A stretch of DNA of 64,000 bases from an uncultured Rhodospirillaceae bacterium. Its GTDB lineage: Bacteria; Pseudomonadota; Alphaproteobacteria; Rhodospirillales; UBA2165. Under the pieces are notes generated by a model. The model was not told the origin of the DNA. It saw only the letters and a list, made by a program, of their open reading frames with translations, and did not search any database. Position 1 is the first letter of the stretch. Each line of letters starts with the position of its first letter. The translations under genes and the position numbers were made by a program. The stretch covers positions 213 through 64,212 of the forward strand of contig CAZMHI010000022.1 of NCBI GenBank assembly GCA_964566055.1, written 5' to 3'. Shown here one piece after another: positions 36,376 through 60,496 of this stretch.

Positions 36376-36385
36376 CAATTCCTTA

Positions 36386-36403: not shown

Positions 36404-36489
36404 TTTTACTGATACATCCTTTAATACTCCTAGACAATGCGATCTTGAGATGGCTTGATAATAAAAAAATTAAATGGGATGCAGGATCT

Positions 36490-38556: not shown

Positions 38557-38565
38557 GCAAAAAAT

Positions 38566-38599
38566 AAGGGCGATCCCGCGTATTCCCGGGACCGCCCTT
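38566..38599. terminator. Bidirectional terminator between convergent transporter genes
   Basis: AAGGGCGATCCCG-N8-CGGGACCGCCCTT, flanked by an A run and a T run. Confidence 0.85.
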
Positions 38600-38622
38600 G
38601 ATTTTTATTAATGTAAAAAGCG

Positions 38623-39705
38623 CTATTTCTTCTTTTTCTTCTTACAATTGACTTGGCATTTGCCCGGTTTTTGTGCCCAGGCAGCTTTCGCTTCTTTCAC
38701 CACATCTGGTGAAGCCTTCAATATGTTCATGACAATTTGCTGGACTACTTCACCGGTTTTAGGCTGGATCAGTGCCCGGCGTTTTTTGGCATCTGCCAAC
38801 AATCCAGGATCTTTAACGGTTTTATTGAAAGCGCCGCGCAGAGCCGCAATACGGTCAGCCGGTACACCCGGAGGCGTGGCGATGGAACGGCCAATGGCAG
38901 AACCGCCGGAGACAAACTTTAGAACAGCTTGAGCTTTAGGATCGGATGTCAGTTCCTGCATCAACGGCAGATTAGGCAGCTCTTTCTCTCTAGCCAAACC
39001 AACCTGGACCAGCGGTGTCAACTCACCTTTGCTGATACGGTCGGCATGACGAATGCGCCAGCTTATCCAGGCACTTGACTGAATATCGACTTCACCGCGC
39101 TCAAGCGCCAGGGTCAATGGTGCAGAACCTTTGTAGCCGCAGATTAATTTGTATTTGAGGCCCAGAAAATACTTCTGCATTGCCGGCATGATAAAGCTTT
39201 GCGAGTTGCGGCCCGTGCAGCCAACCACGACTTCGGTACTTTTTATCGCTTTGATCGATTTAGCCGGCGCACCTGCGCGCGCCATGACAACCGGATTAAC
39301 CGGCACGACGCTGCCAAGCGAGGTGAATTTAGTGGGGTCATATTTCACCCGCTTTGGATTAAGCAAAGAGGCCGTTGCATAGGCATCGAAAGGCCAGAGC
39401 AGGAAGGTGCCGTCTTTGGCGCCAGAGCGATAGCTGTAATTGGTGCCTTTGGTGCCGCCACCGCCGCCCATATTTTGAACGATAATGCTTGGCTTGCCGG
39501 GGATATATTTACCCATATGGCCGGCAAATAAACGCGCATAGGCATCGTATGAGCCGCCTGGAGGATAGGGTACCAGGAAGGTGACAGTTTTGCCTTTGTA
39601 AAATTCGGCTGGTGATTGAGCCGCCGCGGGCTGGATCGAGAATGCTCCGGCAATGGACAAAGCGGCAATTGCGGACGCTGTCAGTAATTTTGACTTCAAC
39701 ATCAT
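38623..39705 (-). CDS. Bug/TctC-family periplasmic solute-binding protein
   Basis: Sec signal, VPYPPGGSYD, QNMGGGGG, GYKGS...ALERGEVD. Confidence 0.9.
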   Translation of the reverse strand: MMLKSKLLTASAIAALSIAGAFSIQPAAAQSPAEFYKGKTVTFLVPYPPGGSYDAYARLFAGHMGKYIPGKPSIIVQNMGGGGGTKGTNYSYRSGAKDGTFLLWPFDAYATASLLNPKRVKYDPTKFTSLGSVVPVNPVVMARAGAPAKSIKAIKSTEVVVGCTGRNSQSFIMPAMQKYFLGLKYKLICGYKGSAPLTLALERGEVDIQSSAWISWRIRHADRISKGELTPLVQVGLAREKELPNLPLMQELTSDPKAQAVLKFVSGGSAIGRSIATPPGVPADRIAALRGAFNKTVKDPGLLADAKKRRALIQPKTGEVVQQIVMNILKASPDVVKEAKAAWAQKPGKCQVNCKKKKKK

Positions 39706-39725
39706 TTCTTCTCCCTGTTAAAAAA

Positions 39726-39783
39726 TAGTTTGATTTCTAAGCTTATTAGTCAGCTTAGTGTTTGATAGAAAGAAATTAAAGTA
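39726..39783. promoter_or_regulatory. MarR operator candidates 3 and 4
   Basis: TAGTTTGATTTCTAAGCT (39726-39743) and TAGAAAGAAATTAAAGTA (39766-39783). Confidence 0.6.
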
Positions 39784-39829
39784 ATATTTTAAGGCCAACA
39801 ATAAATTGATTTTAGGGGAGAACAAGGCC

Positions 39830-41629: not shown

Positions 41630-43264
41630 ATGGCAGCTAACCAATATCACGACATTCATCAGCATATCGAGGCTTTGCGCGAAGCGGGCTTGTTGTATGA
41701 GGTCGACCGCGAGATCAATAAAGATACTGAAATGCATCCTTTGGTGCGTTGGCAGTATCGCGGCGGCATCGCCGAGGAAGAGCGCAAGGCTTGGCTCTTT
41801 ACCAATGTCGTCGACAGCAAGGGCCGAAAATTCGATATGCCGGTATTGGTCTGTGGCCTGGCGGGCAGCCCGGCAATATATGAAATCGGTATTGGTTGCA
41901 GCCTGGAAGAAGTAAACGCCAAATGGTCAGCGGCGATTAAGTCTCCGCTCAAACCCAACATTGTCGAGAGCAAAGCGGCACCTTGCCACGAGTTGGTTTA
42001 TGAAGGCAAAGATTTGCAGAGCGGTAAAGGGCTCGATGATCTGCCGATCCCGATCTCAACGCCGGGCTGGGACAATGCACCGTATTCCTCGTCATCCCAT
42101 TACATCACCAAGGACCCTGAGACCGGCATCCAAAATATGGGCAATTACCGGGGTCAGGTCAAAGCGCCGGACCGCTTCGGTATGAACACCTCGACAGAAC
42201 TGCGCACCGGCGGCCATATCAACTGGCTGGCCTGGAAAGAGCGGGGCGAGAAAATGCCCTGCGCCGTGGTCATCGGCTGTGCGCCCGTAGTTTCTTATGC
42301 TTCGGTGCAGAAAGTCCCGGAAGGCATCGATGAGTTGGAAGTCGCCGGCGCACTTGTCGGACGGCCGCTTGATCTGGTCAAAGCCAAAACCGTCGACCTA
42401 CTCGTGCCGGCAGATGCGGAAGTTGTCATCGAGGGCTTTATCGATACGGAATATCTCGAACCGGAAGCGCCGTTCGGTGAATCCCATGGTCATGTTAATT
42501 TGCAGGAATATAACGGCTATATGGATGTCACGGCGATCACCCGCCGGAAAAAGGCGGCGATTTCATCCTGGGTCAGCCAAGTTGCACCCAGCGAATCCTC
42601 CGTCATCCGGCGTTTTGCATACGAGTCACGAAATGCCTCTTATCTCAGAGATACGCTGGGCATTAAAAGCGTAGTTACCGTAAAAGCACATGAACCCTTA
42701 ACCTCGCTACACCGGGTTCATGCCATCATTTTTAAAAAAGACACGCCCCGCACCGAGATTTGGCGCGCCATGTATGGCCTGGCAGCGTTCCGCCAATCCG
42801 AGGGCAAATGGATCATTGCTGTCGATAAAGATATCGATGGTGAGAATGCCGATGCACTATTTTGGGCCATGGCCTATCGCTGCAAACCCCAGCACGATAT
42901 GGAAATCATCAAGCACCAAGACGGCGGCCATGGACCGCGTGATCTAGCCGATCCGGAAGATGCCTCCGTGCTGATTGACGCCACGCTTAAAGGCACTTTT
43001 CCGCCGGTGTCATTACCCAAGCAGGAGTTCATGGAACGCGCTGCCGAGATTTGGGATGAGCTCGGCCTGCCCAAGCTAAAACGCGAGTCTCCCTGGTATG
43101 GCTATGATCTCGGTGAATGGACGGAAGAGTTTGAACATATGGCCGACCTCGCCGTCAAAAGTGAATACTGGCAGACCGGCAAAGTGATCGCCCAACGGCG
43201 GCGCAATGATGTCGACATGAACACCGAAGTTCGAACTTTAGCTGATGAGGAAGAAAACGAATAG
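41630..43264 (+). CDS. UbiD-family (prFMN) (de)carboxylase, paralogue 2
   Basis: NMGNYR, EAPFGESHGH, KDID, IDAT; clearly paralogous to 34732-36375. Confidence 0.9.
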   Translation: MAANQYHDIHQHIEALREAGLLYEVDREINKDTEMHPLVRWQYRGGIAEEERKAWLFTNVVDSKGRKFDMPVLVCGLAGSPAIYEIGIGCSLEEVNAKWSAAIKSPLKPNIVESKAAPCHELVYEGKDLQSGKGLDDLPIPISTPGWDNAPYSSSSHYITKDPETGIQNMGNYRGQVKAPDRFGMNTSTELRTGGHINWLAWKERGEKMPCAVVIGCAPVVSYASVQKVPEGIDELEVAGALVGRPLDLVKAKTVDLLVPADAEVVIEGFIDTEYLEPEAPFGESHGHVNLQEYNGYMDVTAITRRKKAAISSWVSQVAPSESSVIRRFAYESRNASYLRDTLGIKSVVTVKAHEPLTSLHRVHAIIFKKDTPRTEIWRAMYGLAAFRQSEGKWIIAVDKDIDGENADALFWAMAYRCKPQHDMEIIKHQDGGHGPRDLADPEDASVLIDATLKGTFPPVSLPKQEFMERAAEIWDELGLPKLKRESPWYGYDLGEWTEEFEHMADLAVKSEYWQTGKVIAQRRRNDVDMNTEVRTLADEEENE

Positions 43265-43362
43265 TCAACATTTGGGACGAAAAGCTGATCAATTATCTGC
43301 TCACGCTGTCCACGGAGCCCGGGCGCAAAAACTCCAACGGAAGAAATACATCTGGCTTAGTT

Positions 43363-44136
43363 TCACCTAATCTTCCTATTTCGATCCTCAGGTGGCACGT
43401 CTAACTCTATAGCGGCAATCTTTTCATCGATATCTTCTTTATATTTGGCTCGTAGATCCTCGTTGTTCCATTTGCGGATGCCGTAATCGACCGAGAGATT
43501 AGCAAATTTGGAGCCGGTTTTACCAAAGGTATCAAGGGCATGGGGATACCATTTGTCGACGGCGGCTTGTATTTCCGTTTTGCCGGCCCCGGCCAGCTTT
43601 TGATACTCCTCATTCAGCGAGAGATCACGAGCGCGCCGGGCGCCAAAAGAGGCGTGAAATTTTTCCTCATGGACCATGCTCGTCATTTCCCGGGCCAGTG
43701 GTGCATAAGAGCAATTCAGCATGGCGTGGAGATGATACCAGGCAACCAAATCCATACAGAAACAAAAACCAACCACATCGACCCAGCTTTCAAACGGCAC
43801 ATTAAACGCATCAATTGGATGATTTCCCATGCGCAGTTCCAATAGCTGATCCGCCATGGCTGCACCGTCAGGCCCGAACGAGCGCAACAGACGGCTATCG
43901 ATAAATCCCTGATGAGCTTCATCGGCAGCGATCTGGGCTTGAATGAAACGGTCTTCGGCGGTCGGTCCCTGATTGATCCAGGGCTGATGCTGCTCGACGG
44001 AAGCAAACTCAGTGGAGGCCAGGGCGTAGATTATTTTGAGCAGAGTTTCGCGGTATTCATCGGGCATCTGCTCGACGGTTTCGACCTTCTGCATACCCTT
44101 CATTTCGCCCCATTCGACGCCCCGTGATACCCGCAT
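43363..44136 (-). CDS. Ferritin-like PaaA/BoxB-related protein (aryl-CoA epoxidase catalytic-subunit fold), stand-alone
   Basis: MPDEYRETL (PaaA-like), TEFASVEQ (BoxB-like), DEAHQG, MD, EEKFH, W..KWYP; ATG 44136 after an AGGGAG RBS. Confidence 0.8.
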   Translation of the reverse strand: MRVSRGVEWGEMKGMQKVETVEQMPDEYRETLLKIIYALASTEFASVEQHQPWINQGPTAEDRFIQAQIAADEAHQGFIDSRLLRSFGPDGAAMADQLLELRMGNHPIDAFNVPFESWVDVVGFCFCMDLVAWYHLHAMLNCSYAPLAREMTSMVHEEKFHASFGARRARDLSLNEEYQKLAGAGKTEIQAAVDKWYPHALDTFGKTGSKFANLSVDYGIRKWNNEDLRAKYKEDIDEKIAAIELDVPPEDRNRKIR

Positions 44137-44171
44137 AGTAGAACTCCCTATCAAATTGTTACTTTGAGAAA

Positions 44172-44220: not shown

Positions 44221-46203
44221 TTAGGGCTGGTTTTCCGAAACAGCGTTTGCCGTTTCCGACCGCCGATACGCCAGCACATGCCAGGCCAGGAAAGCAAAGG
44301 CGACCGCCGTGGCACTCCAATGGATGAACGGATCGGTAAAGATGATCAACAGTCCCAATATTAAACGGATGGCAATTTCCCATGCTGGCAACCGGCGCTG
44401 GTCAAAGCCGATCACCGCGCTCGAGACAAGATAAATCACGACGAGCAGGCGCGATATAATGGATAAAAACGGCAACCATTCAAATTGTGTCCCCGATTCC
44501 TCAACCAGCAGAATGACCGGATAGAAGGCAAAGACAAAGGGTACGACGAACTTCACCAGGCCAATGCGCATGGCATAAACCGCCGTCATCATCGGCGGCC
44601 CACCGGCGATTGACGCCGCCGCATAGGCCGCAATCGCCACCGGCGGTGTGATCGATGAGGCAACGCTGTAATAAAGCACAAATAGATGGGCGACCAACAC
44701 GGGTATACCCAACTTGATAATCGCCGGACCCAGAATAAGGATCACCGTGAGGTAAGCGGGCAATGTCGGAATTCCCATGCTCAGCATAAGTGCCGCCATG
44801 GCAGCTATCATCAAGGTGATCACGAGGCTGGTTCCTGTTCCTTCACCAACCAGCAAGGTGAAATCATTTGGCAATCCGGTTGCTGCCAGTACAGCAACAA
44901 TGATGCCGACCACGGCCACCGACATCAGCAACTCGCCGAATTGCCGGCCGCCATTGGCGAATGCGTTTAATATTAGGAGGGGTTTTTTCCTCACTTCCGG
45001 ATTGAGAAAGCTGAGCGGAATGAGAACCGTCAAAGCGATATTGCCGGCACCTGCGGGAGAAAACCCGTACAGCAGGGCCATCACGACCGTGGCAATCGGC
45101 ACGAACACCAGAATCAGATTATAGTAATCCTGTCGATGAACGGTAAGATCGGCGTCGGTGTCGGATAAATCCTGAACTGCTTCAATGCCGAGCCGCCTCG
45201 ATTCAAAAACCACACTGGCAAACAGACTGGCGTAGTAGGCAAGGGCCGGAATGAGCGCGGCGATAATGATGTGCAAGTAAGGAATTTCGGTGATATCGGC
45301 CATCACCAGCGCCGCTGCGCCCATAACCGGCGGCATGATCTGACCTGCGCTCGACGCCGTCGCTTCAACACCGCCGGCAAAGGCCCGATGAAATCCCCGC
45401 CGTATAATCATCGGTATGGTGATCACACCGGTAGCCACAACATTGGTCACAGCGCCGCCCGACATGGTGCCAAACATGGCCGACGAAACGATGGCCGCGT
45501 GGGCCGGGCCGCCCCTGAGCCGGCGGGTGAAATGAAAGGCTATTTTAATCAGCGAATGAGCACCGCCGGTGCGTTCAAGCATGGCGCCTAAAAGAACGAA
45601 AGGAAAAGCAGTGAATATAAGTATGGCTGTAATACCGCCGACCACGCCCTCGCCGAGATTGAACCATAAATCTTCTGCTGAACTGCTCAATATATCAAAC
45701 GGCGCCGTCTTAAAAATTCCCGGCCAAAAAGGCCCCGTGAAATAATAAAACAGGGTGACCATACCGACGATCGCCAGCGCCGCGCCCCAGACACGCCAGC
45801 AAAGTATAATGAATGCAGCTGAAGCTGCGAGCGCTATGGCGGCGTGGGAGCCATCGAAGATGACCATCGAGTCCACCATTTCCAGCATGTCGACAGAAAA
45901 CCGCCACAAGGCAAAAATAATTACTGCGAGGATAAAGAGATCGAGCGCCAGGCCCGTAACTTTCAGGTTGGGACGGCTCTTCGCCCAGCCAACCGCAAAG
46001 GAAAATTTCAAGGTAACAACGAGCACAGCCGCTCCGAGCATCAGTGGACGGACAATTTCAGGCTGGAACGGACCCATCCTTGGCACAATCCAATAGCTCG
46101 GATAGGAATTTATTAGCCCGACAAAGGCGACAACTAAACTTACGAGGTAAATCGAGTTTTGCCGCCAGTCTGCTTTTTCACCAGCCTGCGTGTCATTGTT
46201 CAT
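44221..46203 (-). CDS. TRAP transporter fused 4TM/12TM permease (TAXI type)
   Basis: GGPAHAAIVSSAMFGTMSG, EATASSAGQIMPPVMG, SITPPVA. Confidence 0.95.
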   Translation of the reverse strand: MNNDTQAGEKADWRQNSIYLVSLVVAFVGLINSYPSYWIVPRMGPFQPEIVRPLMLGAAVLVVTLKFSFAVGWAKSRPNLKVTGLALDLFILAVIIFALWRFSVDMLEMVDSMVIFDGSHAAIALAASAAFIILCWRVWGAALAIVGMVTLFYYFTGPFWPGIFKTAPFDILSSSAEDLWFNLGEGVVGGITAILIFTAFPFVLLGAMLERTGGAHSLIKIAFHFTRRLRGGPAHAAIVSSAMFGTMSGGAVTNVVATGVITIPMIIRRGFHRAFAGGVEATASSAGQIMPPVMGAAALVMADITEIPYLHIIIAALIPALAYYASLFASVVFESRRLGIEAVQDLSDTDADLTVHRQDYYNLILVFVPIATVVMALLYGFSPAGAGNIALTVLIPLSFLNPEVRKKPLLILNAFANGGRQFGELLMSVAVVGIIVAVLAATGLPNDFTLLVGEGTGTSLVITLMIAAMAALMLSMGIPTLPAYLTVILILGPAIIKLGIPVLVAHLFVLYYSVASSITPPVAIAAYAAASIAGGPPMMTAVYAMRIGLVKFVVPFVFAFYPVILLVEESGTQFEWLPFLSIISRLLVVIYLVSSAVIGFDQRRLPAWEIAIRLILGLLIIFTDPFIHWSATAVAFAFLAWHVLAYRRSETANAVSENQP

Positions 46204-46230
46204 ATTTATTGGTCTATTCTATATTAAATA

Positions 46231-46264
46231 TCAGGGCTGGCCCGGCCAAACGCGCCAGCCCTGA
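46231..46264 (-). terminator. Intercistronic hairpin between TAXI SBP and permease
   Basis: TCAGGGCTGGC-N12-GCCAGCCCTGA, 11-bp perfect stem followed by an AT-rich tract. Confidence 0.75.
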
Positions 46265-46282
46265 TCAAGTGTTGATTGGAAG

Positions 46283-47299
46283 TTAAGGAAGGAGATGGGC
46301 CGGAACTTTGAAGCCGACTTCCTTATAATATTTCGCCGCACCCGGATGTAGCTTCACGTTTACACCAGCTAAAGGATTAGACTTGCTGAGTGTCTTCAAA
46401 ACAGAGGCGCTTTTATGGATTTCATCCAGATTTGCCCACATTGCTTTGAGCATTTTGTAGATGAGATCACTATCCAAATTCTTGCGCACCAGAATAAAGC
46501 TGTTTGCAGCTGTCGTCCGGGCATCATCACCGACCTGATTATTGTAGGTGCCGGCTGGAATGGTGGCGTTTTCATTGATCAGTTGCTCGATCATAACTTT
46601 CTGCCATTTTTTGCTGTCGGCTGCTTTGCCTGCTCCGAGCAGGACAAACTTTTTCTTAGCCCCAATTTGGTTGATAACGGCGGAACCTATGGCTGTTGGC
46701 CGCAGAAACACATCAATTTGACCATCGAGCATTGCTTGCATGCCCTGCCCCCAGGGAAGCCGGATAACCTCAAAATCTTTTTTCGGCGTATAACCTGTCG
46801 CAACAGTCAAATAGGAACTGGATTGGGTGTAAAAGCCACCTGCAGGGGGACCCATATAGACGCGTTTGCCTTTGATGTCGGCCAGGGTTTTGATGCCGGA
46901 ATCTTCCCAGGCGATGATGTGAATGGCACTGGCTGGAAATCCGAATATCGCAGCCATTGAATTGTAGGCTTTATTGGCTTTCTTTTTCAGTTTTTTATAC
47001 ATGCGCTGGCCGTTTTTGAGCCATGGCGAAATCTGGGGGACGAAATGAATCATCTCCAAGTCACCCGTGCCAAATTTAAGCACTGACCGCGTCAAAGTTT
47101 GGCCGGTATTAATTTGCAGTGAGACGCCGGTTTCTCGTGGAAGAATTTTTCCGAGAACAGTCAGCAAAATTGCCGGTGAACCAGATGGGCTGGTCGCATC
47201 AACCCGCAGTATTTTGGATTGCGCATTGGCGCTTGAAGCCGCCAGGCTCAGGCCGAGAGCGACGATAAGACTAAGTGACAAAATTCTATAGGATTTCAT
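46283..47299 (-). CDS. TAXI-family TRAP solute-binding protein
   Basis: Sec signal, GIKTLADIKGKRVYMG, AMLDGQID, LHPGAAKYYKE. Confidence 0.9.
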   Translation of the reverse strand: MKSYRILSLSLIVALGLSLAASSANAQSKILRVDATSPSGSPAILLTVLGKILPRETGVSLQINTGQTLTRSVLKFGTGDLEMIHFVPQISPWLKNGQRMYKKLKKKANKAYNSMAAIFGFPASAIHIIAWEDSGIKTLADIKGKRVYMGPPAGGFYTQSSSYLTVATGYTPKKDFEVIRLPWGQGMQAMLDGQIDVFLRPTAIGSAVINQIGAKKKFVLLGAGKAADSKKWQKVMIEQLINENATIPAGTYNNQVGDDARTTAANSFILVRKNLDSDLIYKMLKAMWANLDEIHKSASVLKTLSKSNPLAGVNVKLHPGAAKYYKEVGFKVPAHLLP

Positions 47300-47494
47300 T
47301 TTATTTCCTCCCAGTAATGGTTTTGTATGACTTTACTGTCATTTTGCTAGCTAGCATAGCAATTTAAAGTTCAAATAGGTTAGCTCTTCGTTGAAGGAGA
47401 GCTGGCTTCCACCTCCGGCAATTTTTAACTCACCGTTGAAGAATAGATTAGATAATCTTATACCATCGCAGCTAATTCAAAATTGGCCTTAGGG

Positions 47495-47515
47495 TATAAC
47501 TTAGATTGATAGCCT
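47495..47515 (+). promoter_or_regulatory. LysR-2 box upstream of the TAXI operon
   Basis: TATAA-CTTAGAT-TGATAGCCT. Confidence 0.75.
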
Positions 47516-47521
47516 CAAAAC

Positions 47522-47635
47522 TTATGCCGAGGCCGAGCTTTTTAATATTGCTCTAAATCCCTGAAAAGCATGGTTGGGCAGGCTTGGGCGGCGTCTGGCG
47601 ATGCCGCCTTCAAATTTTCAAAAAGTGCCAAAATG
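47522..47635 (-). pseudogene. 3-prime remnant of a LysR paralogue of LysR-2
   Basis: Translates HFGTF*KFEGGIARRRPSLPNHAFQGFRAILKSSASA*; 28/37 identical to the LysR-2 C-terminus; Trp codon replaced by TGA at 47618-47620. Confidence 0.85.
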
Positions 47636-47681
47636 TACATGATGGTCAAGAAAAACGGCAAATTATCATATTTCCGATCAA

Positions 47682-48764
47682 CTAAAGCCGACCGCCAATT
47701 TCAGGAGAATCTGCAGCATAACGGTAGGCGCGGAAGACCCAGTTGCCGTTGGCCTTCGGAGTGTCGCCGCTGGCTGGGCCACAGGGGCCGAAGTGAGGCG
47801 AAATATATTCCCAGACAATATCGCCGTTAGGGGTAACTTCGAAAATTCGCCCCCATAGACCTTCGCATATCAAGGTATTGCCGCTCCACAGACGTTGGGC
47901 GCCGCTAATGTGATGACTAAAAAACGTCCAAGGAGGATCGCCCTCATAACGCCAGGCTTCTTCGCCGGTCTCAGGGTTAAACTCGATCACCCGCGAGCAA
48001 TGGGTTGGACTTTCCCCAAATTGTCCGTTGGCGAATAGCATAATGTTGCCGTTATCCAGCATCTTAGCGTCGTGCTGTCCTCCCCAGCCGTAGTCGTTCC
48101 TTTCCCAGCGGACTTTCTTGGTCTTGCGATCGATGATGAAGATCCAGCTGTTGCGGCGGAAACTGATTAAATAGTCGCCGTTGGCTAAAGGAAACAACGA
48201 GTTGGCATGACAGAACTCATCGCGGGGACCGAGGGGATGAATCGGATAATTCTCGATCTCCATCTCATCCTGAGCATGCCATTCCCAGACGGTTTCACCT
48301 GTCATATTGACTTCGCGGATATAGTCGCCCAAGACACCGCCATCGGACATCTCGGAACCGGGAATCCCTCCCTGCAATCGGGCGATCGAGTCAGGACGAA
48401 ATCGTTCAAAGCCAAGATAGACGGTATTGCCGTTGGGCAAGCGGTGGAAATCGTGATGTTGAGCAGGGGCGTCGCCTTGCCAAACAATGTTACCATCCCA
48501 ATCAAATTCGTGGATAATGCGCATCCCTTCACGGCTGGATGCAGTCTCCAAGTCAGCCTTCAACACCGTCAATAGATTGCCATTGGGCAAGAGCTTGCCA
48601 TACCCGGTTCGTAAATCCGTCACATCCCATTCATGAACCACCTCACCTCTCATATCGATCAAATAAGTGGTGTGGTTGTCTGCGTGGACCGGTGTGAAAA
48701 TGGTGTAACCAGGCGTTGCCTGAGCAACATCATGTTCGAGAAGGCCGAATTTGTGATAACGCAT
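47682..48764 (-). CDS. Arylsulfotransferase (ASST)-like beta-propeller, no signal peptide, paralogue 1
   Basis: QHHD, CHANS, SFRR, GQHD, FANG, SGAQRL.SGNTLICEG. Confidence 0.85.
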   Translation of the reverse strand: MRYHKFGLLEHDVAQATPGYTIFTPVHADNHTTYLIDMRGEVVHEWDVTDLRTGYGKLLPNGNLLTVLKADLETASSREGMRIIHEFDWDGNIVWQGDAPAQHHDFHRLPNGNTVYLGFERFRPDSIARLQGGIPGSEMSDGGVLGDYIREVNMTGETVWEWHAQDEMEIENYPIHPLGPRDEFCHANSLFPLANGDYLISFRRNSWIFIIDRKTKKVRWERNDYGWGGQHDAKMLDNGNIMLFANGQFGESPTHCSRVIEFNPETGEEAWRYEGDPPWTFFSHHISGAQRLWSGNTLICEGLWGRIFEVTPNGDIVWEYISPHFGPCGPASGDTPKANGNWVFRAYRYAADSPEIGGRL

Positions 48765-48893
48765 GAAGGGGTGCCTCTGAGATTATATACCGTTTTTCCA
48801 GCACAATGATAATGGTGTTAAACTTCAACACCAAATTCGAAATTAGTCTAACGTCGCCGTTTGTTAACAGCTATCCGATTATGAGTCGATGGA

Positions 48894-49799
48894 TTAGGCA
48901 TTGCCCGATCTGGGATCAGTCATGCTGCGCAATTTGTCGCCCATAAGATTGATCGACAAGATTGTTAGGAACATCCAGGCCGACGGAACAAACGTGACAT
49001 GCGGGCTGAACGCAAGTTCTGAAAAACCATCCGCAATCATTTTCCCCCAGCTTGGGGTTGGTGGTGGCAAACCAACACCGAGGAACGCCAGTGCTCCTTC
49101 AATGATAATAACCCGCGACATACCGAGTAGCATCAAAGCCAGCACGGGAATGATCACGTTTGGCAGTAATTCCCTGAAAAGAATTCGAATGTGAGACGCG
49201 CCTTGAGCACGCGCGGCGGTTACAAACTCCCGGTTGCGGTATTGAATGGTAACGGCTCTGGAAATCCGAATATCATTCACCATACCGAAAAATCCCAACA
49301 CCAGGATGATATTTAACAAATTGGCATCCAGAACGAACAATACAGCCATGACCGCGACGATATTAGGAAAGGCCAGAAGAGAATCGACGTAGATGCCGAC
49401 AGCAGCATCCGTGCGTCCACCGAAGTAGCCAGCCGACATGCCAAATACCAAGCCAAAAATCAAACTGATGACAGGTGCCGTATAAGCAATGGTCAGCGAA
49501 ATCTGTCCGCCATAAATTATGCGCGACAGCAGATCGCGACCAATAGTATCAGTGCCAAGCCAATGATCTCCACTGAAAGGGCCTAAGTATTTTTTGTCTA
49601 AGTCTGACTTCATTGGATCAGCTATCGGCAGGAAATCTGCGAATATGGCGCTAAAGGTGATAAGCAAAATCCAGCTAAGACTTAGCCAGAAAACCAGACC
49701 AAACTTTTGCGAGGCTACTTCACCTGCCTCGGACTCGTTGTCCGCCAATTCATATTTAGGGTAGAAAAGCCGGCGGAATATAGTCAATACCGCACTCAT
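48894..49799 (-). CDS. Dpp/Opp-type ABC permease (DppC-like)
   Basis: WLGTDTIGRDLLSRIIYG, EFVTAARAQGAS, LAFLG.G..PP.PSWG. Confidence 0.95.
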   Translation of the reverse strand: MSAVLTIFRRLFYPKYELADNESEAGEVASQKFGLVFWLSLSWILLITFSAIFADFLPIADPMKSDLDKKYLGPFSGDHWLGTDTIGRDLLSRIIYGGQISLTIAYTAPVISLIFGLVFGMSAGYFGGRTDAAVGIYVDSLLAFPNIVAVMAVLFVLDANLLNIILVLGFFGMVNDIRISRAVTIQYRNREFVTAARAQGASHIRILFRELLPNVIIPVLALMLLGMSRVIIIEGALAFLGVGLPPPTPSWGKMIADGFSELAFSPHVTFVPSAWMFLTILSINLMGDKLRSMTDPRSGNA

Positions 49800-50761
49800 T
49801 TACCGCCTCCCATCCGAACCCGCGGATCCAAAACGGTGTACATCAAATCGATGAAAAGATTAATCACCACATAGGCCAATGCTAAGAAGGCAACACCGCC
49901 CTGCAGGATCATGGCATCACGCCCATCAATGGAATCGATCAGTAATTTTCCGATGCCAGGAAGGGCAAATATCGTCTCCAAAATAACCGCGCCACTGATC
50001 AGGTTTCCGAGTTGCAAGCCAACAATCGTAATCAAGGTGAACGAAGATGGACGCATGGCGTGATGAAACAAAATATAGGCCGGAGACATGCCTTTTGCCT
50101 TGGCCAGAGAGATATAATCTTCCTGCAGGGTCGCCACCATATCCACCCGCAGCACCCGCATCAATATGGGAACTTCCAGCAGACCAACAACAGTGGCGGG
50201 GAGGACAAAAAACTTTAAGTTGGCGAGCGGGTCATCCATAAAAGGTATATACCCTGCGGCGGGCAGCCATTTCAGCGTGACGGCGAAAATAAAGACAAAG
50301 ACGATGGCAATGACAAATGGCGGCGCGGCGACGATAGCAAAAACAATCGCACTTAACGCCCGGTCAACCCCTCGGTTGACCCGGTAGGCAGCCCACACAC
50401 CAAGCGGAATGGCGATCAGCAAAGCGAGGGTCTGTGACAATATGAGGAGTTCCAGGGTTACCGGTAGACGAGAAACAATTTGATCCCAAACCGGAAAATT
50501 ATTGATCAATGATATGCCAAAATCACCTTGGACCAGATTGCCGAGCCAAATAAAATATCGCACGACAACGGGTTTATCGAGGCCAAGCTCGATTGTCAGT
50601 TCTTTGCGCATTTCTGCGATTTGATCGGCCTCGGCTTCATCATCTTGCAGCAGCGTATCTACTACATCACCCGGCAGAACATTCATCAGCATAAAGCTGG
50701 CAAATGTGACAACAAAAAAAACCGGAACCAGACGTAAAAGCCGGCCACGAATATATTTCAA
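49796..50761 (-). CDS. Dpp/Opp-type ABC permease (DppB-like)
   Basis: LPGD, GDFGISL, EDYISLAKAKGMS, ETIFALPGIG; TTG 50761 after a GGAGG RBS. Confidence 0.95.
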   Translation of the reverse strand: MKYIRGRLLRLVPVFFVVTFASFMLMNVLPGDVVDTLLQDDEAEADQIAEMRKELTIELGLDKPVVVRYFIWLGNLVQGDFGISLINNFPVWDQIVSRLPVTLELLILSQTLALLIAIPLGVWAAYRVNRGVDRALSAIVFAIVAAPPFVIAIVFVFIFAVTLKWLPAAGYIPFMDDPLANLKFFVLPATVVGLLEVPILMRVLRVDMVATLQEDYISLAKAKGMSPAYILFHHAMRPSSFTLITIVGLQLGNLISGAVILETIFALPGIGKLLIDSIDGRDAMILQGGVAFLALAYVVINLFIDLMYTVLDPRVRMGGGK

Positions 50762-50799
50762 CGAATCCTCCAAATACTAATTGAGCAACCCAAGCAAAA

Positions 50800-50837
50800 T
50801 TGAGGACACAATATAATCTTATATACTGTGTCCTCAA
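50800..50837. other. Intercistronic stem-loop (SBP to permease)
   Basis: TTGAGGACACA-ATATA-atct-TATAT-ac-TGTGTCCTCAA; 11-bp perfect outer stem. Confidence 0.75.
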
Positions 50838-50946
50838 AATTTTAACACCTAAGCCAATTACTTTAAACCAACTCGGTGGTTCTAAGTTTGAAAGTCGTGT
50901 GATGTAGGAATAATTTACACAACTTTCCTAGAGTAGTCGGCGCACT

Positions 50947-52506
50947 CTATTTTTTTATCCAGGCGCGGTGAGCTTTGTAGCCGTTACTCATGGGCTTCTG
51001 CATGCCGCCAACGCGATTGTTGAAGCCGAAGCTAATGACGGCGGTACGGAATGGATAATAGCGAACTTGGTCGACCAGTATTTTCTGGTAGTCGCAACTC
51101 GCCTTCATCCGCGCCGCATGACCTTTCGCACTCAGCAGCTTGTCGATCGCAGCATCGATCGCCGGGTCTTTTACATTGTAGAAGTTAGATTTACTTTTGG
51201 AATGGAAGTTAATGGCAACGACACTTGGATCGACATTGTTGCCAAAGTTGGTCCACCAAATATCGTATTTTCCACTCGTGATACCACGGTTATAGGACGG
51301 TCCTCGCGGCCCGACCTTGATAGCAACGTCAACACCGACGGCTTTCCATTGAGCCTGGAGCGACTGTGCAATAACAGATATCGTATTGATCGAGATGATA
51401 TTGAGGGTGATCTTCACCGGCTTGCCATACTCGGCCAACAGCTTTTTGGCCTTTGCCGGGCTGTATTCTGGCCACTCCATTTTCACATCTTTACAATACC
51501 AAGGATGATCCGAAGGATACATCTGGGTCGGCACCTCGGTCTCGACGCGGGTTCCGATCATGGTTATGGCCTTGCGGTCGAGGGCATGAAGCAGCGCTTT
51601 ACGTACCCGGATGTCGTTCATCGGCGCTTTCGAACTGTTGAAGCCGATGCCCCGGGGCGCAATATTTGAGACGCCGTCGAGTATCGTCGTGTTGGGGGTC
51701 TCGACCCTATCGCGCTCCGTCGTTGGCACCAGCATAACGTCGGTCTGGCCAGCCTTGAGGGCATTGAATGCATTGGTCCGGTTCGGAATGATCTGAAAGA
51801 CGATTTCGTCCAGATGCTGCGCTTTGGGGTTCCAATAATTAGGATTACGCACCATGGTGATCCTATCACCGGGTTTCCATGATTTTACCATGTAAGGACC
51901 CTGGCCGATCGAGGTTTGACCGAAGGTGCGTTTCTTCGAATTGGCGGCGACCCATCCCGGTTCTTGGACATACCAGGTAATGATCGGCATGGAGAGGATC
52001 GACTTGAAGCCCGGACTGGCCTGGCGGAAGTGAAAATCGAAGGTGTATTTATCAACCACCTCGACCCGGTCCATTGCCGGCCCCATAATACGGCGGAAAC
52101 GGCCCGCCACTTTGCTTGAGAGAAAGCGGTCAAAATGAGCCTTGTAGGCTTGGGAGGTAACTTCAACGCCGTTGGAAAATTTCATGCCCTGACGCAATTT
52201 AATCCGCCAGCGCTTGAAGTCGTCGCTGGGATCGGCCGACAACGCGGCTTGGGGAATAAACTCATTGGTATCCGCATCCCGATCGAACAGGTTGTCGTGG
52301 ATCGCGGCCAACGGATTGTTCCGGGTGTTGTTGTTGACGGGGACCCGGACCGAGTCGAAACTCTTGATATCGGTGCCGCTGTGGACGACGAGCCTGCCGC
52401 CGGTACCCGCCGGATGGTGGGCCAATACGGTTCCGGCGGACGAAAGTCCAACCAATCCAGCCGTCAGGGTAAATACAGATAGTAATTTTAAGGTTTTGTG
52501 TCGCAT
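50947..52506 (-). CDS. Dpp/Opp-type ABC solute-binding protein (family 5)
   Basis: Sec signal, LRQGMKFSNG, GQGPY...W.PG, RNPNYW. Confidence 0.9.
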   Translation of the reverse strand: MRHKTLKLLSVFTLTAGLVGLSSAGTVLAHHPAGTGGRLVVHSGTDIKSFDSVRVPVNNNTRNNPLAAIHDNLFDRDADTNEFIPQAALSADPSDDFKRWRIKLRQGMKFSNGVEVTSQAYKAHFDRFLSSKVAGRFRRIMGPAMDRVEVVDKYTFDFHFRQASPGFKSILSMPIITWYVQEPGWVAANSKKRTFGQTSIGQGPYMVKSWKPGDRITMVRNPNYWNPKAQHLDEIVFQIIPNRTNAFNALKAGQTDVMLVPTTERDRVETPNTTILDGVSNIAPRGIGFNSSKAPMNDIRVRKALLHALDRKAITMIGTRVETEVPTQMYPSDHPWYCKDVKMEWPEYSPAKAKKLLAEYGKPVKITLNIISINTISVIAQSLQAQWKAVGVDVAIKVGPRGPSYNRGITSGKYDIWWTNFGNNVDPSVVAINFHSKSKSNFYNVKDPAIDAAIDKLLSAKGHAARMKASCDYQKILVDQVRYYPFRTAVISFGFNNRVGGMQKPMSNGYKAHRAWIKK

Positions 52507-52569
52507 TTTATCTCTCCTTTGAAAACAAGACGGAAGCCTGATGATATGCAGTAGAGACTGTTGTGTTCG

Positions 52570-52698
52570 TCATTGGCCTAGCACTTCTTTCAAAGTTGCC
52601 AGACAAGTAGTGTTGTCGGTTTCTTTGCCGATCGTAGTGCGAATGAAGTTATCATATCCCGGATCAGCTTAGGCGTTAATCTGTACGCCTTTGTCTAT
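52570..52698 (-). pseudogene. C-terminal remnant of a HisC-family (class I/II) aminotransferase
   Basis: Translates IDKGVQINA*ADPGYDNFIRTTIGKETDNTTCLATLKEVLGQ*, matching the HisC C-terminal pattern G-x-x-x...PG...IR.TIG...N...L..L; internal TAA at 52669-52671; absent from the ORF track. Confidence 0.7.
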
Positions 52699-52755
52699 GG
52701 AGAAAATAGTAGATAAATTTACACCTTTTCAGCCAATTCAAAATTGGCCGAAGGG

Positions 52756-52776
52756 TATAACTCAGGTTAATAGCCT
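52756..52776 (+). promoter_or_regulatory. LysR-2 box upstream of the ABC operon
   Basis: TATAA-CTCAGGT-TAATAGCCT. Confidence 0.75.
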
Positions 52777-52783
52777 TGTACTT

Positions 52784-53674
52784 CTATTCGCTGACCGAGC
52801 TTTTCAATATGGCTCGAAATCCCTGAAATGCTGGACCAGGCGGGCTTGAGCGACGCCTGGCGATGCCGCCTTCAAAATCCCAAAATGTACCTTCATGTGT
52901 TATTTGGGTTAAACCAAATGCCTCAATTTCAGATCGGCTGTTCTCAGCAAATGTGGAAAGATAATCAGTGGACTGGGCAATGGTAATGGCCCCTAAATAA
53001 CTGGTTTCAACGGCCACATTAGGAGGAGGGAGGCTGTTGGCGGCAAAATAGGCGCCAATCGTGCTCCCGCTGGCCCGATCATCAGCCAAAACAATCCAAG
53101 GATATTGACTAAGATCCTCGGCGCTGACCGTTTTTTTTATCGCGAGCGGGTGTCCCACTCGACCAAAAACCGTGTGGCGTAACTTCAGGAGAGGCTCTTT
53201 AACGATGTCAGCGTGATCGGGAAAATCAAGGCCGCCGCAAATCATATCCAAATCACCATCGAGTAGTTGTTGGATGCTGGCATCGAACCCCGGCCCGGTT
53301 ACAGTGACCCGAACATCTGGAAATTGCTGGTGAAATTCATTGATCACGGGCGGCAGGATTGACAGCAACCAAACGGGACCGGCAGCAATGCGAAGGCGAC
53401 CACTTATGCCACTATTATGATCAGCCAATTCGGCAAGTGCATGCTGGTATTCCAGGGTCATCAGTTTAACTCGGCGGGCCAGAATTTGACCCTCAGGTGT
53501 TAAAACGACCCCGGTAGGTAAACGATTAAAAAGTGTGACGCCAAGAAGGTCTTCCAGCTGTTTTAAGCTGCGCGTTACAGCAGGTTGAGTTATGCCAATT
53601 GATTTCGCGGCCGCAGAAAGGGTTCCGGCATTGGCCACTTCGGAGAAATAGTATAGGAGCTTTGAATGTCTCAT
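52784..53674 (-). CDS. LysR-family transcriptional regulator (LysR-2)
   Basis: TLSAAAKSIGITQPAVTRSLKQLED HTH; 296 aa. Confidence 0.95.
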   Translation of the reverse strand: MRHSKLLYYFSEVANAGTLSAAAKSIGITQPAVTRSLKQLEDLLGVTLFNRLPTGVVLTPEGQILARRVKLMTLEYQHALAELADHNSGISGRLRIAAGPVWLLSILPPVINEFHQQFPDVRVTVTGPGFDASIQQLLDGDLDMICGGLDFPDHADIVKEPLLKLRHTVFGRVGHPLAIKKTVSAEDLSQYPWIVLADDRASGSTIGAYFAANSLPPPNVAVETSYLGAITIAQSTDYLSTFAENSRSEIEAFGLTQITHEGTFWDFEGGIARRRSSPPGPAFQGFRAILKSSVSE

Positions 53675-53687
53675 TGTCTGCCACTAA

Positions 53688-53781
53688 CCCCAATCCCGTC
53701 CTATAAATAGAACTGATAGCCTCCGGTCAAGTTCTCATATTACAGATCAGACGTTGATATCTAGAATATAAGGCATCCAAA
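53688..53781 (+). repeat. 94-bp inverted repeat, copy 1 (LysR-2 divergent promoter)
   Basis: 87/94 identical, ungapped, to the reverse complement of 60392-60485. Confidence 0.95.
53702..53722 (+). promoter_or_regulatory. LysR-2 box (autoregulatory/TPP operon)
   Basis: TATAA-ATAGAAC-TGATAGCCT. Confidence 0.75.
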
Positions 53782-53855
53782 GCCCGGTTGAGAAGCGCAA
53801 GTATCGTTTTGTTCCACGACTGGTAAAAAAATAAATGTAAGAGGAAGAAGTTGTC

Positions 53856-55487
53856 ATGGGAATATTGACTTCAGGTGCCGGGGCGGTAGTCAAATCAATT
53901 AAAAATCACGGTGTCGATACGGTTTTCGCCTTGCCGGGAGCCCAGCTTGATCCGCTGTTTGACGCTTTTCATGCGGAACGCGAAACCCTCAGGGTCATTC
54001 ATACACGCCATGAACAGGGCGCCGCCTATATGGCGCTCGGCTATGCCCAATCGACGGGCCGCGAGGCAGTGTGTGCGGTTGTACCCGGACCGGGTGTGCT
54101 TAACGCCGGGGCGGGGCTCCTGTCGGCCTACGGCAATGGTGCGAAAGTCTTATGCATCGGCGGCCAGATTCCCAGTAAAGCCATCGACCAGGGTATCGGC
54201 CTGCTCCATGAAATGTATGATCAAAAAGGAACCATGGCGGCGACAACAAAATGGCAAAGCCGCATTGACAACCCTGGTGATGCACCGGCTGTTATAGGTG
54301 AGGCATTTCAGCAAATGAACACAGGCCGCCAACGACCGGTCTTTGTCGAAATGGCGCCCGACATAATGGCTGCCGAGGCAGAGCTCGATATTCCGGCGGC
54401 AAACCGGGACTATGAGATGCTTGAGCCCGATCCGGATTTGGTCGAGCAGGCGGCAGCCCTAATGGGCAACGCAGAAAATCCGGCGATCTTCGTTGGCGGT
54501 GGTATCTTCGGCGCTGAGCAGGAATTGCTGGATCTGGCAGAGACCCTCCAGGCGCCGGTTTTCATGACTGCCGCCGGCCGGGGCGCCGTTGATGACAGGC
54601 ATTATCTGGCCCAAAACATGATTGCCGCAGGCCGGCAGTGGCCCAAGATTGACGCCGCTTTGGTCGTCGGCACAAAGTTCCTGCTGCCAATTTCCCAATG
54701 GGGCTGGGACGATGAAATAAAGCTGGTGCGGATCGACCCTGACCCGGATCAATCAATTAGCAAATGGATTCCAGACGTACACCTAGTGGCTCATGGCAAG
54801 CCCAGCCTGGCGGCCATTGCAGACCGGGTCTCCCGGCATAATAGATCGCGGGACTCGCGGGAAACGGAATGGCGCGACCTCCAGCAGGCTGCCGACAACG
54901 ATCTCGCCGAGACCTTGCCGGGCCTGTACGCTTATGGCAACGCCCTGCGCGAGGAGCTACCGGAAGATGGTATCGTTTGTTTTGGGGTCACTCAAATGGG
55001 CTTTTACAGTTGGTTCGGCTTTCCCACCTATCACCCGCGAACCAATCTTCAAGCCGGCGTCCAAGGCACCTTGGGGTTCAGTTTCCCGACCACTTTAGGC
55101 GTTAAGGTAGCGCATCCCGACAAAAAGGTCGTTTGCGTCACCGGTGATGGGGGCTTCATGTTTGCCAGCAACGAACTCTCCACGGCCATCCGCCACGGCA
55201 TCAACACGGTCACGCTGGTGTTCAACAACGGCGGCTTCGGCAATGTTAAGAAAAATCAGTCAGTGGATTATGGTGGGCGGCTGATCGGTTGGGATTTGGC
55301 CAACCCGGATTTTGTTAAATTTGCCGAATCCTTTGGCGCCATGGGGCTCCGCGCCTCTTCGCCTGAAGAGCTTCGGGTCGCTTTACAAAAAGCGTTTGCC
55401 GCTGATGGACCGGTAATCATCGAGGTGCCGTTCGAGGATCTACCTGACTGGCGCCCGCTACAACACGCCTACCGGATGCGCGGTTAA
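53856..55487 (+). CDS. TPP-dependent enzyme (acetolactate synthase-like, probable 2-oxoacid decarboxylase)
   Basis: ALPGAQL, TRHEQGA, QGTLG, TGDGGFMF...FNN. Confidence 0.9.
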   Translation: MGILTSGAGAVVKSIKNHGVDTVFALPGAQLDPLFDAFHAERETLRVIHTRHEQGAAYMALGYAQSTGREAVCAVVPGPGVLNAGAGLLSAYGNGAKVLCIGGQIPSKAIDQGIGLLHEMYDQKGTMAATTKWQSRIDNPGDAPAVIGEAFQQMNTGRQRPVFVEMAPDIMAAEAELDIPAANRDYEMLEPDPDLVEQAAALMGNAENPAIFVGGGIFGAEQELLDLAETLQAPVFMTAAGRGAVDDRHYLAQNMIAAGRQWPKIDAALVVGTKFLLPISQWGWDDEIKLVRIDPDPDQSISKWIPDVHLVAHGKPSLAAIADRVSRHNRSRDSRETEWRDLQQAADNDLAETLPGLYAYGNALREELPEDGIVCFGVTQMGFYSWFGFPTYHPRTNLQAGVQGTLGFSFPTTLGVKVAHPDKKVVCVTGDGGFMFASNELSTAIRHGINTVTLVFNNGGFGNVKKNQSVDYGGRLIGWDLANPDFVKFAESFGAMGLRASSPEELRVALQKAFAADGPVIIEVPFEDLPDWRPLQHAYRMRG

Positions 55488-55491
55488 GTTC

Positions 55492-56550
55492 ATGAGAATA
55501 TTGCAAACTGGAGTCACCCTGCACAACCAAGACCAGGCAACAGAAGGTCTTACTCTGTTCTCACCTCTTTGGGGACGCGAAACCTATCTCATCGACATGG
55601 CGGGTGAAGTCGTACATCAATGGGAATTGCCGGGAGCGCCGGCCGGGTATGCCCGATTACTGCCCAACGGCAATCTGTTTTACGCCGCTAAATCTGAAGG
55701 TGGCCCGAGTTTCCCCGGCGGTGCCCAGGGTGGGCTAATGCGCGAGGTGGATTGGAACGGCAACGTTATCAACGAAATTAGCGATCCAATGCAGCACCAT
55801 GATGCTAGACGTTTGGAAAACGGCAACACATTATATGCTGGCTGGGAAGACATGCCTGAAGACCGCGCCGCCTTGGTGACCGGCGGTATACCTGAATCTT
55901 TCCCCGAAGGCGGCCTGTATAATGATTACGCCAGAGAGGTAGACCCCGACGGTAATACGGTTTGGCAGTGGTCTGCGCACAGCATGGAGCTCGAAAAATA
56001 TCCGATCAATCCGATGACTGGTCTCAAGGTATTTGCCTGGCTCAACGCCACCTTTCCCATGCCCAATGGTGATGTCATGGTCAGCTTGCGGCACATTAAT
56101 ACTGTCGCCATCATCGACCGGGACAGCAAAGAAATTAAATGGGAAATGACCGATTTCGGTTGGGGCGGCCAGCATGATTGTCAGCTTCTCGACAACGGCA
56201 ATATAATTCTTTTTGCCAACGGCACGAAAACCTATGAAGGTCAGCAGCATTCCCGCATCATCGAGATTGACCCGGAAACCAAGGAAGAGGTCTGGGTCTA
56301 TAAAAGTAATCCGGTCAACCACTTCTATTCCCATCACATCAGCGGCCAGGAACGGCTTGCCTCCGGCAACACACTCATTTGCGAAGGGCTTTGGGGACGT
56401 ATATTTGAAGTTACCCCGTCGGGCGAGATCGTCTGGGAGTACATCTCACCTTATTTCGGAAAAACGTTTACCGGCGACGACACAAACTGGGTCTTCCGCG
56501 CCTTCCGGTATGCAAAGGACTCCGCAGAGATAGCTGGCAGAATTGGTTAA
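55492..56550 (+). CDS. Arylsulfotransferase (ASST)-like beta-propeller, no signal peptide, paralogue 2
   Basis: QHHD, AWLNA, SLRH, GQHD, FANG, SGQERL.SGNTLICEG. Confidence 0.85.
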   Translation: MRILQTGVTLHNQDQATEGLTLFSPLWGRETYLIDMAGEVVHQWELPGAPAGYARLLPNGNLFYAAKSEGGPSFPGGAQGGLMREVDWNGNVINEISDPMQHHDARRLENGNTLYAGWEDMPEDRAALVTGGIPESFPEGGLYNDYAREVDPDGNTVWQWSAHSMELEKYPINPMTGLKVFAWLNATFPMPNGDVMVSLRHINTVAIIDRDSKEIKWEMTDFGWGGQHDCQLLDNGNIILFANGTKTYEGQQHSRIIEIDPETKEEVWVYKSNPVNHFYSHHISGQERLASGNTLICEGLWGRIFEVTPSGEIVWEYISPYFGKTFTGDDTNWVFRAFRYAKDSAEIAGRIG

Positions 56551-60391: not shown

Positions 60392-60485
60392 TTTGGATGT
60401 CTTTTATTCTAAATATCAACATCAGATCTGTAATATGAGAACTTGACCGGAGGCTATCAGTTCTACTTATAGGAAGGGATTGGGG
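60392..60485 (-). repeat. 94-bp inverted repeat, copy 2 (promoter of the aminotransferase)
   Basis: 87/94 identical to 53688-53781 in opposite orientation; contains the LysR-2 box. Confidence 0.95.
60451..60471 (-). promoter_or_regulatory. LysR-2 box upstream of the aminotransferase
   Basis: TATAA-GTAGAAC-TGATAGCCT on the minus strand. Confidence 0.75.
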
Positions 60486-60496
60486 TACCGGAAGAC

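Follow-up and report, generated by a model that had tools for sequence, protein, structure and literature searches.

Two genes in a 64,000-nucleotide stretch of the genome of an uncultured Rhodospirillaceae bacterium (assembly GCA_964566055.1, contig CAZMHI010000022.1, positions 213 to 64,212 of the forward strand; hereafter the window) encode proteins, P1 and P2, which sequence and structural models identify as leaderless, single-domain, six-bladed relatives of the arylsulfate sulfotransferases (ASSTs), enzymes independent of 3'-phosphoadenosine-5'-phosphosulfate (PAPS); their closest counterparts are Cpz4 and the AssT of Escherichia coli (EcAST). P1 appears to carry the full set of active-site residues (His type), while in P2, and in the whole clade to which it belongs, a tryptophan replaces one of the active-site histidines (Trp type). 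The explanation we favour, with a confidence somewhat better than even, is that both proteins are cytoplasmic enzymes of the ASST superfamily that act through a sulfo-histidine, and that the Trp clade has changed its proton transfer or its class of substrate. The genes and the codons on which the argument turns are the following:

47682..48764, minus strand: P1, a 360-residue single-domain leaderless beta-propeller of the ASST fold, His type, with an apparently full active-site set (open reading frame, Pfam, model)
48207..48209, minus strand: CAT codon of His186 of P1, the H-x-N histidine, corresponding to EcAST His356 and to the H-I-N motif of Cpz4 (profile alignment, codon checked)
48072..48074, minus strand: His231 of P1, in the Q-H-D motif, the predicted sulfuryl-carrying nucleophile, corresponding to EcAST His436 (alignment, codon checked)
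55492..56550, plus strand: P2, a 352-residue leaderless paralogue, Trp type (open reading frame, Pfam, model)
56029..56031, plus strand: Val180 of P2, where 134 of 137 His-type sequences have a Glu, three residues ahead of the His (family alignment)
56038..56040, plus strand: TGG codon of Trp183 of P2, which stands where EcAST has His356 (Dh His283, St His317) and is a Trp in 60 of 60 clade members
56173..56175, plus strand: His228 of P2, in the Q-H-D motif, the predicted nucleophile, kept in the Trp type (60 of 60 Trp-type sequences)

The two proteins are 51% identical over their full length and pass the Pfam gathering cut-offs of both PF05935 (24.2 bits; P1 scores 69.8 and P2 63.2) and PF14269 (27 bits; 63.9 and 55.8, respectively). 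No NCBIfam model matches either of them, and the protein atlas returned only clusters automatically named 'aryl sulfotransferase family'. The AlphaFold models, which were built from homologue alignments, have a mean predicted local distance difference test score (pLDDT) of 91.7 for P1 and 90.6 for P2. When the P1 model is compared with solved structures by VIA-align, Cpz4 comes first (Z 34.2, 310 residues, 2.7 Å) and EcAST follows (Z 30.2, 312 residues), and the next matches are unrelated propellers with Z no higher than 21; in a Foldseek search with the P2 model, Cpz4 (9KF4/9KF6) is likewise at the top and the E. coli enzyme second. Since residues 5-358 of the P1 model align with residues 118-571 of the EcAST chain, P1 and P2 would correspond to the bare catalytic propeller of the ASSTs, devoid of the N-terminal beta-sandwich.

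The active site of AssT comprises H252, H356, N358, R374 and T501 together with the nucleophile H436 (review PMC13426309). The middle histidine (Dh His283 and St His317, equivalent to Ec His356) has been proposed to protonate the phenolate as it leaves and to serve as the base that activates the acceptor, and the later histidine to carry the sulfuryl group (10.64898/2026.10.08.757636, 10.64898/2026.10.08.757629); in one of these two preprints the active-site histidines are called strictly conserved, save in a few clade-2 sequences. To map these residues, a profile of P1 homologues was aligned to the PDB sequences. In this alignment A-H186-x-N188 of P1 falls on A-H356-V-N358 of EcAST, R203 on R374, Q-H231 on Q435-H436 and also on the QHD of Cpz4, and S-x-H285-I286-S on S498-P-I-T501-S, and the spacing between the His and the Arg is 17 residues here vs 18 in EcAST. 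The counterparts of the sulfuryl-binding Asn and Arg are thus N188 and R203 in P1, and N185 and R200 in P2. In blade 2, the invariant QHHD may be the counterpart of EcAST His252, judging by the likeness between T-H-E...P-N-G in EcAST and H-H-D...P-N-G here and by alignment offsets that rise steadily along the chain.

The motifs that the initial annotation had read in P1 are all in place, namely QHHD (H103, H104), H186-x-N188, S-F-R203 and Q-H231-D, and its pairing of F-C-H-A-N in P1 with F-A-W-L-N in P2, with the TGG codon at 56038-56040, is borne out; moreover, the replaced residue is the very histidine, EcAST His356 by profile alignment, that has been proposed as the general acid/base. On sequence and model, P1 appears to have every feature of ASST sequence and structure that could be examined here. 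The motifs of P2 are QHHD, W183-x-N185, S-L-R200 and Q-H228-D. Its Trp183 lies at the position of EcAST His356, and therefore P2 is without the proposed acid/base and is to be regarded as a variant, not as a canonical ASST; the carrier His228, Asn185, Arg200, Asn243 and the HHD are all retained.

The fold, the residue correspondences, the structure of the clade, the purifying selection and the missing export signal are results of this analysis; that P1 and P2 handle sulfuryl groups, what each residue does and which substrates are used is inferred. The apparently full set of P1 (His104, His186-x-Asn188, Arg203, His231, Asn246, the backbone at His285-Ile286, and Tyr55) would support the ping-pong route of the ASSTs, in which His231 would be sulfurylated by an imported aryl sulfate and the departing phenolate would take a proton from His186; with the same His186 now as the base, the sulfuryl group would next be handed to the hydroxyl of an acceptor or, at a slow rate, to water. 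In the P2 clade, where Trp takes the place of the acid/base His and Val that of the upstream Glu, and where Arg55, His281 and, mostly, His251 have been gained, a sulfo-His228 intermediate would presumably still form, because the residues that bind and carry the sulfuryl group are all invariant in the clade, and its protons would be routed differently or its donor or acceptor would belong to another class. The change in P2 may mean that protons take another route, that substrates of another class are used, that the reaction has shifted towards hydrolysis, or that His281, His253 or Glu298 makes up for the lost histidine.

The sequence indicates that both proteins are cytoplasmic, with no room for a signal peptide. 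Each open reading frame begins at the first start codon past an upstream in-frame stop (which lies 6 codons before the start in P1 and 25 codons in P2), the first 35 residues contain hydrophobic runs of 3-4 residues at most, and the modelled propeller already begins at residue 5-7; given these first-possible starts, short runs and early propeller, the claim that neither protein has a signal peptide holds. The related statement, that dsbL and dsbI are missing, agrees with the absence of DSBA-family genes from the window's contig (DsbB/DsbI were not searched); seven DSBA-family genes are present on other contigs of the genome.

The conservation of the tryptophan among homologues, which had been suggested as a check, gives a positive result. 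In the first homologue search 63 of 122 sequences were of the Trp type, including all matches at least 58% identical to P2, and in a wider set of 198 sequences the position is occupied by Trp in 60, His in 137 and Asn in one. A maximum-likelihood tree of 109 sequences (from a quick search, not the completed careful one) accounts for the Trp label by a single change, and the branch of the clade has a support of 94 in the Shimodaira-Hasegawa-like approximate likelihood ratio test (SH-aLRT); P2 and the second Trp-type copy of the genome belong to separate subclades. Other changes accompany the tryptophan: the Glu three residues before the His is Val in 58 of the 60 Trp-type sequences; Arg55 stands in place of Tyr or Gln, two residues past the invariant Tyr of blade 1; His281, found in 54 of 60, takes the place of a residue that is Pro in 118 of the 137 His-type sequences; and His251 is found in 58 of 60, P2 itself having Gln251. 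Little or no variation is seen in either type at the HHD, the Asn, the Arg and the His-Asp (the nucleophile His is present in 197 of the 198 sequences). The ratio of nonsynonymous to synonymous substitution rates (dN/dS) of P2 is 0.074 against an 87%-identical orthologue and 0.056 against an 85%-identical one. Judging from these sequences, the Trp clade is old, monophyletic and under purifying selection, which is strong in P2, and the low dN/dS, the linked changes and the conserved carrier residues point to a remodelled active site that has been maintained, rather than to decay. The notion that the tryptophan is a sequencing error, or a mark of a decaying pseudogene, is rejected by its clade-wide invariance and by the low dN/dS.

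A different matter is whether P2 could be a catalytically dead pseudoenzyme whose fold serves to bind a ligand or to regulate. It lacks, after all, a residue that is said to be strictly conserved in ASSTs, and many genes of the Trp clade are solitary, with housekeeping genes such as ruvX, pyrB and pyrC around them. Nevertheless, the nucleophile His, the HHD, the Asn, the Arg and Asn243 are 100% conserved in the 60 sequences, which is unusual for pseudoenzymes, and with the dN/dS of 0.06-0.07 this makes a dead enzyme very improbable. Somewhat less remote, and still unlikely, is the proposal that the members of the P2 clade are ordinary ASSTs in which the lost His has been replaced by His281, His251, His253 or the invariant Glu298. 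In its favour, His251 and His281 are gains specific to the Trp clade and could compensate for the lost His, as the initial annotation had allowed; His281, in addition, adjoins His282-Ile283, the counterpart of pocket residues in solved ASSTs, and an ASST-like gene paired with a gene for a thiamine pyrophosphate (TPP)-dependent enzyme is of the Trp type here and of the His type elsewhere. On the other side, position 251 of P2 is Gln, not His, and the loss of the Glu together with the gain of Arg55 looks more like a reshaping of the pocket than like the exchange of one residue for an equivalent. Altered chemistry or specificity of P2, as originally suggested, is a fair inference, given that the tryptophan is invariant in a monophyletic clade.

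To speak of two paralogues, as the initial annotation did, understates the case: the genome (4.48 Mb in 110 contigs) holds 11 full-length short paralogues, P1 and P2 included, and three longer leaderless genes of the ASST family, and the expansion extends to the bacterial family as a whole. The other members in this genome (G000) are listed below:

G000 C2:5303-6361: short leaderless ASST-like paralogue
G000 C63:5847-6920: short leaderless ASST-like paralogue
G000 C84:14168-15232: short leaderless ASST-like paralogue, the second of the Trp type
G000 C12:73673-74737: short leaderless ASST-like paralogue
G000 C12:68858-70063 (L012:8858-10063): divergent member of the short leaderless ASST-like paralogues, of 401 residues
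G000 C1:93982-95040: short leaderless ASST-like paralogue
G000 C37:33428-34486 and 34557-35615: tandem pair of short leaderless ASST-like paralogues
G000 C92:3100-4158: short leaderless ASST-like paralogue beside an alkylsulfatase
G000 C6:99668-101332, C6:102517-104232 and C62:9963-11237: three longer ASST-family genes

The three longer genes encode 419-550 residues from the first Met, score 216-228 bits against PF05935 and keep the His motifs; no obvious leader is seen in them by eye. The divergent paralogue of 401 residues has W-T-N-L-N, with Asn at the His/Trp position, H-S-H for QHHD and Q-H-N for Q-H-D, and it adjoins genes for a reductive-dehalogenase-like Fe-S protein and an AMP-ligase, a trio that also occurs in another metagenome-assembled genome (MAG; L075). 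All 24 genomes sampled from this bacterial family carry the short form, with 1-15 matches in each; of 16 that represent the remaining families of the order, only 2 do. Its named relatives are uncultured marine Rhodospirillales and Rhodospirillaceae MAGs, some from a depth of 3000 m, and farther relatives occur in Binatia, Rokuibacteriota, Entotheonella, Thermodesulfobacteriota and others. A phmmer search against 1.84 billion representatives gave 5,383 clusters (at 50% identity) with E no higher than 1e-10, a count that also takes in remoter ASST relatives, and 443 with E no higher than 1e-30. Tandem two-copy fusions (760-815 residues) and giant proteins (1,840-3,265 residues, with 5-7 matched stretches) are found among P0196, P0197, P0199, P0202 and P0212.

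The surroundings of P1 and P2 in the window consist of the following genes:

44221..47299, minus strand: TAXI-type binding protein and fused permease of a tripartite ATP-independent periplasmic (TRAP) transporter, downstream of P1
48894..52506, minus strand: binding protein and two permeases of Opp/Dpp type, upstream of P1 (Pfam)
52784..53674, minus strand: LysR-type regulator, between the P1 and P2 gene groups
53856..55487, plus strand: TPP-dependent enzyme of the NCBIfam PRK08266 family, immediately upstream of P2
56632-58131, plus strand: M17 leucyl aminopeptidase, downstream of P2
58139-59164, plus strand: DoeB-like deacylase of the AstE/AspA family, downstream of P2

P2 starts 4 nt past the stop of the TPP-enzyme gene, and P1 starts 129 bp past the second permease; no ATPase gene adjoins the Opp/Dpp importer genes, and P1 stands where the ATPase genes usually lie. 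Two repeats are found in this region. An inverted repeat of 95 nt (93% complementary; window 53687-53781 and 60392-60486), each arm of which lies in a promoter region, brackets the genes for the TPP enzyme, P2, the M17 peptidase, the deacylase and a HisC-like aminotransferase. Owing to a direct repeat, 79-80% identical (window 47437-47636 and 52698-52898), the stretch between P1 and the TAXI gene carries a copy of the sequence that precedes the binding-protein gene, with the 3' end of the LysR gene included, which suggests a duplicated promoter/operator or an inserted cassette made up of the ATP-binding cassette (ABC) importer genes plus P1. Window 32406-44154 contains genes for two UbiD-family decarboxylases, the large subunit of a molybdenum hydroxylase, a second TPP enzyme, a TctC-like receptor and a PaaA/PaaC-like protein, and looks like an aromatic-acid catabolic island adjoining the P1/P2 region.

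Gene neighbourhoods were compared for the 11 paralogues of the genome and 80 foreign loci by calling open reading frames in related loci and scanning them against Pfam, with a filter that dropped the ASST gene itself in some high-GC loci. Overall, the neighbours are mostly genes of aromatic catabolism and importers of organic anions; those of the nine other paralogues include acyl-CoA-dehydrogenase-like, amidohydrolase_2, Fe-S, GFA/GST, VanA-like oxygenase/FAH/OsmC and cNMP-binding proteins. The TAXI-TRAP pair that flanks P1 likewise flanks the paralogue on C92 and the P1 orthologue in L044, which lies between the TAXI-TRAP genes and those of a tripartite tricarboxylate transporter (TTT). Two other orthologues of P1 (79% identity; L053:182-3597 and L059:9764-13439), in two MAGs, are followed on the same strand by katG, the catalase-peroxidase gene. 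The operon of P2 (TPP enzyme, P2, M17 peptidase and deacylase) is not kept around its 85%-identical orthologue in the genome G004, which is flanked by TauE-family, GST and MR/MLE genes, and the pairing of TauE/SafE with an ASST-like gene recurred in no other locus examined up to then, nor near the paralogues of the genome. A PRK08266-type TPP gene, 50% identical to that of the window, directly precedes an ASST-like gene in L037 (8355-9452); this copy is of the His type, and the pairing thus recurs with the other type of active site. The search for a conserved neighbourhood of the Trp clade gave none in the loci examined, where its neighbours include genes for an MFS transporter, DctM, a GMC oxidoreductase, NadA, ribonucleotide reductase, a CHAT-TPR protein, an Fe-S protein and ruvX; the other Trp lineage lies beside ruvX, pyrB and pyrC, with or without the Fe-S protein.

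The alkylsulfatase beside one lineage of paralogues is the sole recurring link to sulfur in the contexts examined. On C92 (3100-9168; L015) the order of the genes is TRAP, TAXI, alkylsulfatase of the metallo-beta-lactamase (MBL) type and ASST-like paralogue; the genome G001 also has the alkylsulfatase/ASST-like pair, in the opposite order, and G002 has an ASST-like gene close to an SDR gene and to a distant alkylsulfatase-like gene (the loci concerned are L015, L103 and L118).

Several observations weigh against assigning sulfuryl chemistry to these proteins. Their identity to characterised ASSTs is only 17-19%, and the phmmer E-value against the PDB is only 3e-4. The match of QHHD to EcAST H252 has a competitor in a weak hidden Markov model domain (E 370), which paired H252 with the Tyr of blade 1 instead. 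The neighbourhoods are heterogeneous and mostly without sulfur genes. A search of the literature on the short family, its Pfam accessions and marine or bathypelagic contexts found no characterisation and no enzyme assay; in the Pfam ASST family as such, a metagenomic enzyme, P40 (KP212136), has been verified (Colin et al., 2015; PMC4686663). Finally, the short family has an invariant Cys-Glu (T-L-I-C-E-G) and additional Arg residues that are absent from EcAST and could serve another reaction.

This last point has its place in another explanation, which we consider improbable, though the least so of the rivals: that in the short family the ASST scaffold has been turned to a chemistry different from sulfuryl transfer, be it another group transfer through a covalent His or a hydrolase or lyase reaction on phenolic or aromatic catabolites, the Trp clade being one more specificity. 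In addition to the Cys-Glu and the extra Arg, it draws on the neighbouring genes (a VanA-like oxygenase, FAH, amidohydrolase_2, UbiD, GST, a reductive-dehalogenase-like Fe-S protein, a GMC oxidoreductase and KatG, with few sulfur genes), and on the scores of the short forms against PF05935 in a six-frame search, 34-60 bits vs those of the longer genes of the genome. It has to contend, however, with the fact that each sulfate-contacting residue of the solved ASSTs appears to have a conserved counterpart, that two proven sulfotransferases are the closest structures by a wide margin, and that an alkylsulfatase recurs beside the genes of one lineage. The original interpretation, intracellular sulfuryl transfer or desulfation with P2 as an altered enzyme, stands in part, as regards the ASST fold and layout and the conserved change to Trp, with the transfer or desulfation as its predicted chemistry.

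ASSTs are under active study as catalysts of sulfation that do not need PAPS. To our knowledge, all the well-characterised ones are large, multi-domain and mostly secreted enzymes. A minimal cytoplasmic form of approximately 355 residues, with thousands of relatives, would offer a simpler scaffold for engineering and a route to their physiological role; this has its importance, as a 2026 review states that no natural donor substrate of an ASST has been identified in more than 40 years. The Trp clade, for its part, would be a natural knockout of the proposed acid/base histidine and therefore a direct test of the two-histidine model put forward in the 2026 preprints. That this lineage in particular has come to carry 11-15 copies may reflect a part in turning over the sulfated aromatics of the deep ocean. 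A more far-reaching proposal, doubtful as it stands, is that these small ASSTs constitute a large unrecognised cytoplasmic family with which marine heterotrophs process the sulfated phenolics of dissolved organic matter, and that the near-core Trp clade, without the base that activates the acceptor, catalyses a distinct reaction. Were this true, that reaction might be, for example, hydrolysis of the sulfo-His by an enzyme specialised in it, which would be an arylsulfatase of a novel type, or a transfer to non-phenolic acceptors, and the ASSTs would have their first physiological role and natural substrates.

Among the known systems, the nearest is Cpz4, of the caprazamycin biosynthesis of Streptomyces (PDB 9KF4/9KF6), which is both the best structural match and the sole direct sequence hit in the PDB, and which has been assigned to 'clade 14' (10.64898/2026.10.08.757629). 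It has the H-x-N-S and Q-H-D motifs in common with P1, while P2 is without the H-x-N histidine that Cpz4 keeps, and it is an enzyme of a biosynthetic pathway, not a periplasmic one dependent on DsbL/DsbI. It differs in its length (472 residues, with approximately 65 extra at the N-terminus and longer loops), in its sequence (identity approximately 19%), and in having a defined natural acceptor, caprazamycin.

The AssT of E. coli CFT073 (PDB 3ELQ/3ETS/3ETT) shares the six-bladed propeller with P1, in which H356, N358, R374, H436 and T501 all have counterparts, as H252 may have by likeness of motif, whereas P2 has Trp at H356. AssT is periplasmic, its N-terminal beta-sandwich (residues 1-117) holds the dimer together, and its disulfide depends on DsbL/DsbI (PMC13426309); P1 and P2, in contrast, have neither a leader nor the N-terminal domain, and the contig carries no DSBA gene (with DsbB/DsbI outside the search). 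In the case of Dh_ASST_6 of Desulfitobacterium hafniense and St_ASST_5 of Salmonella, the centre of three His, the Asn, the Arg, the backbone contact of blade 5 and the Tyr of blade 1 appear to be shared with P1, and the spacing of the residues is compatible with Y55, H104, H186, R203, H231, I286 and Y349 of P1, even though both are three-domain proteins of approximately 600 residues, unlike P1 and P2. The conservation of the middle His, the proposed acid/base, is described as strict save in a few clade-2 sequences, and the P2 clade constitutes a large natural exception to it.

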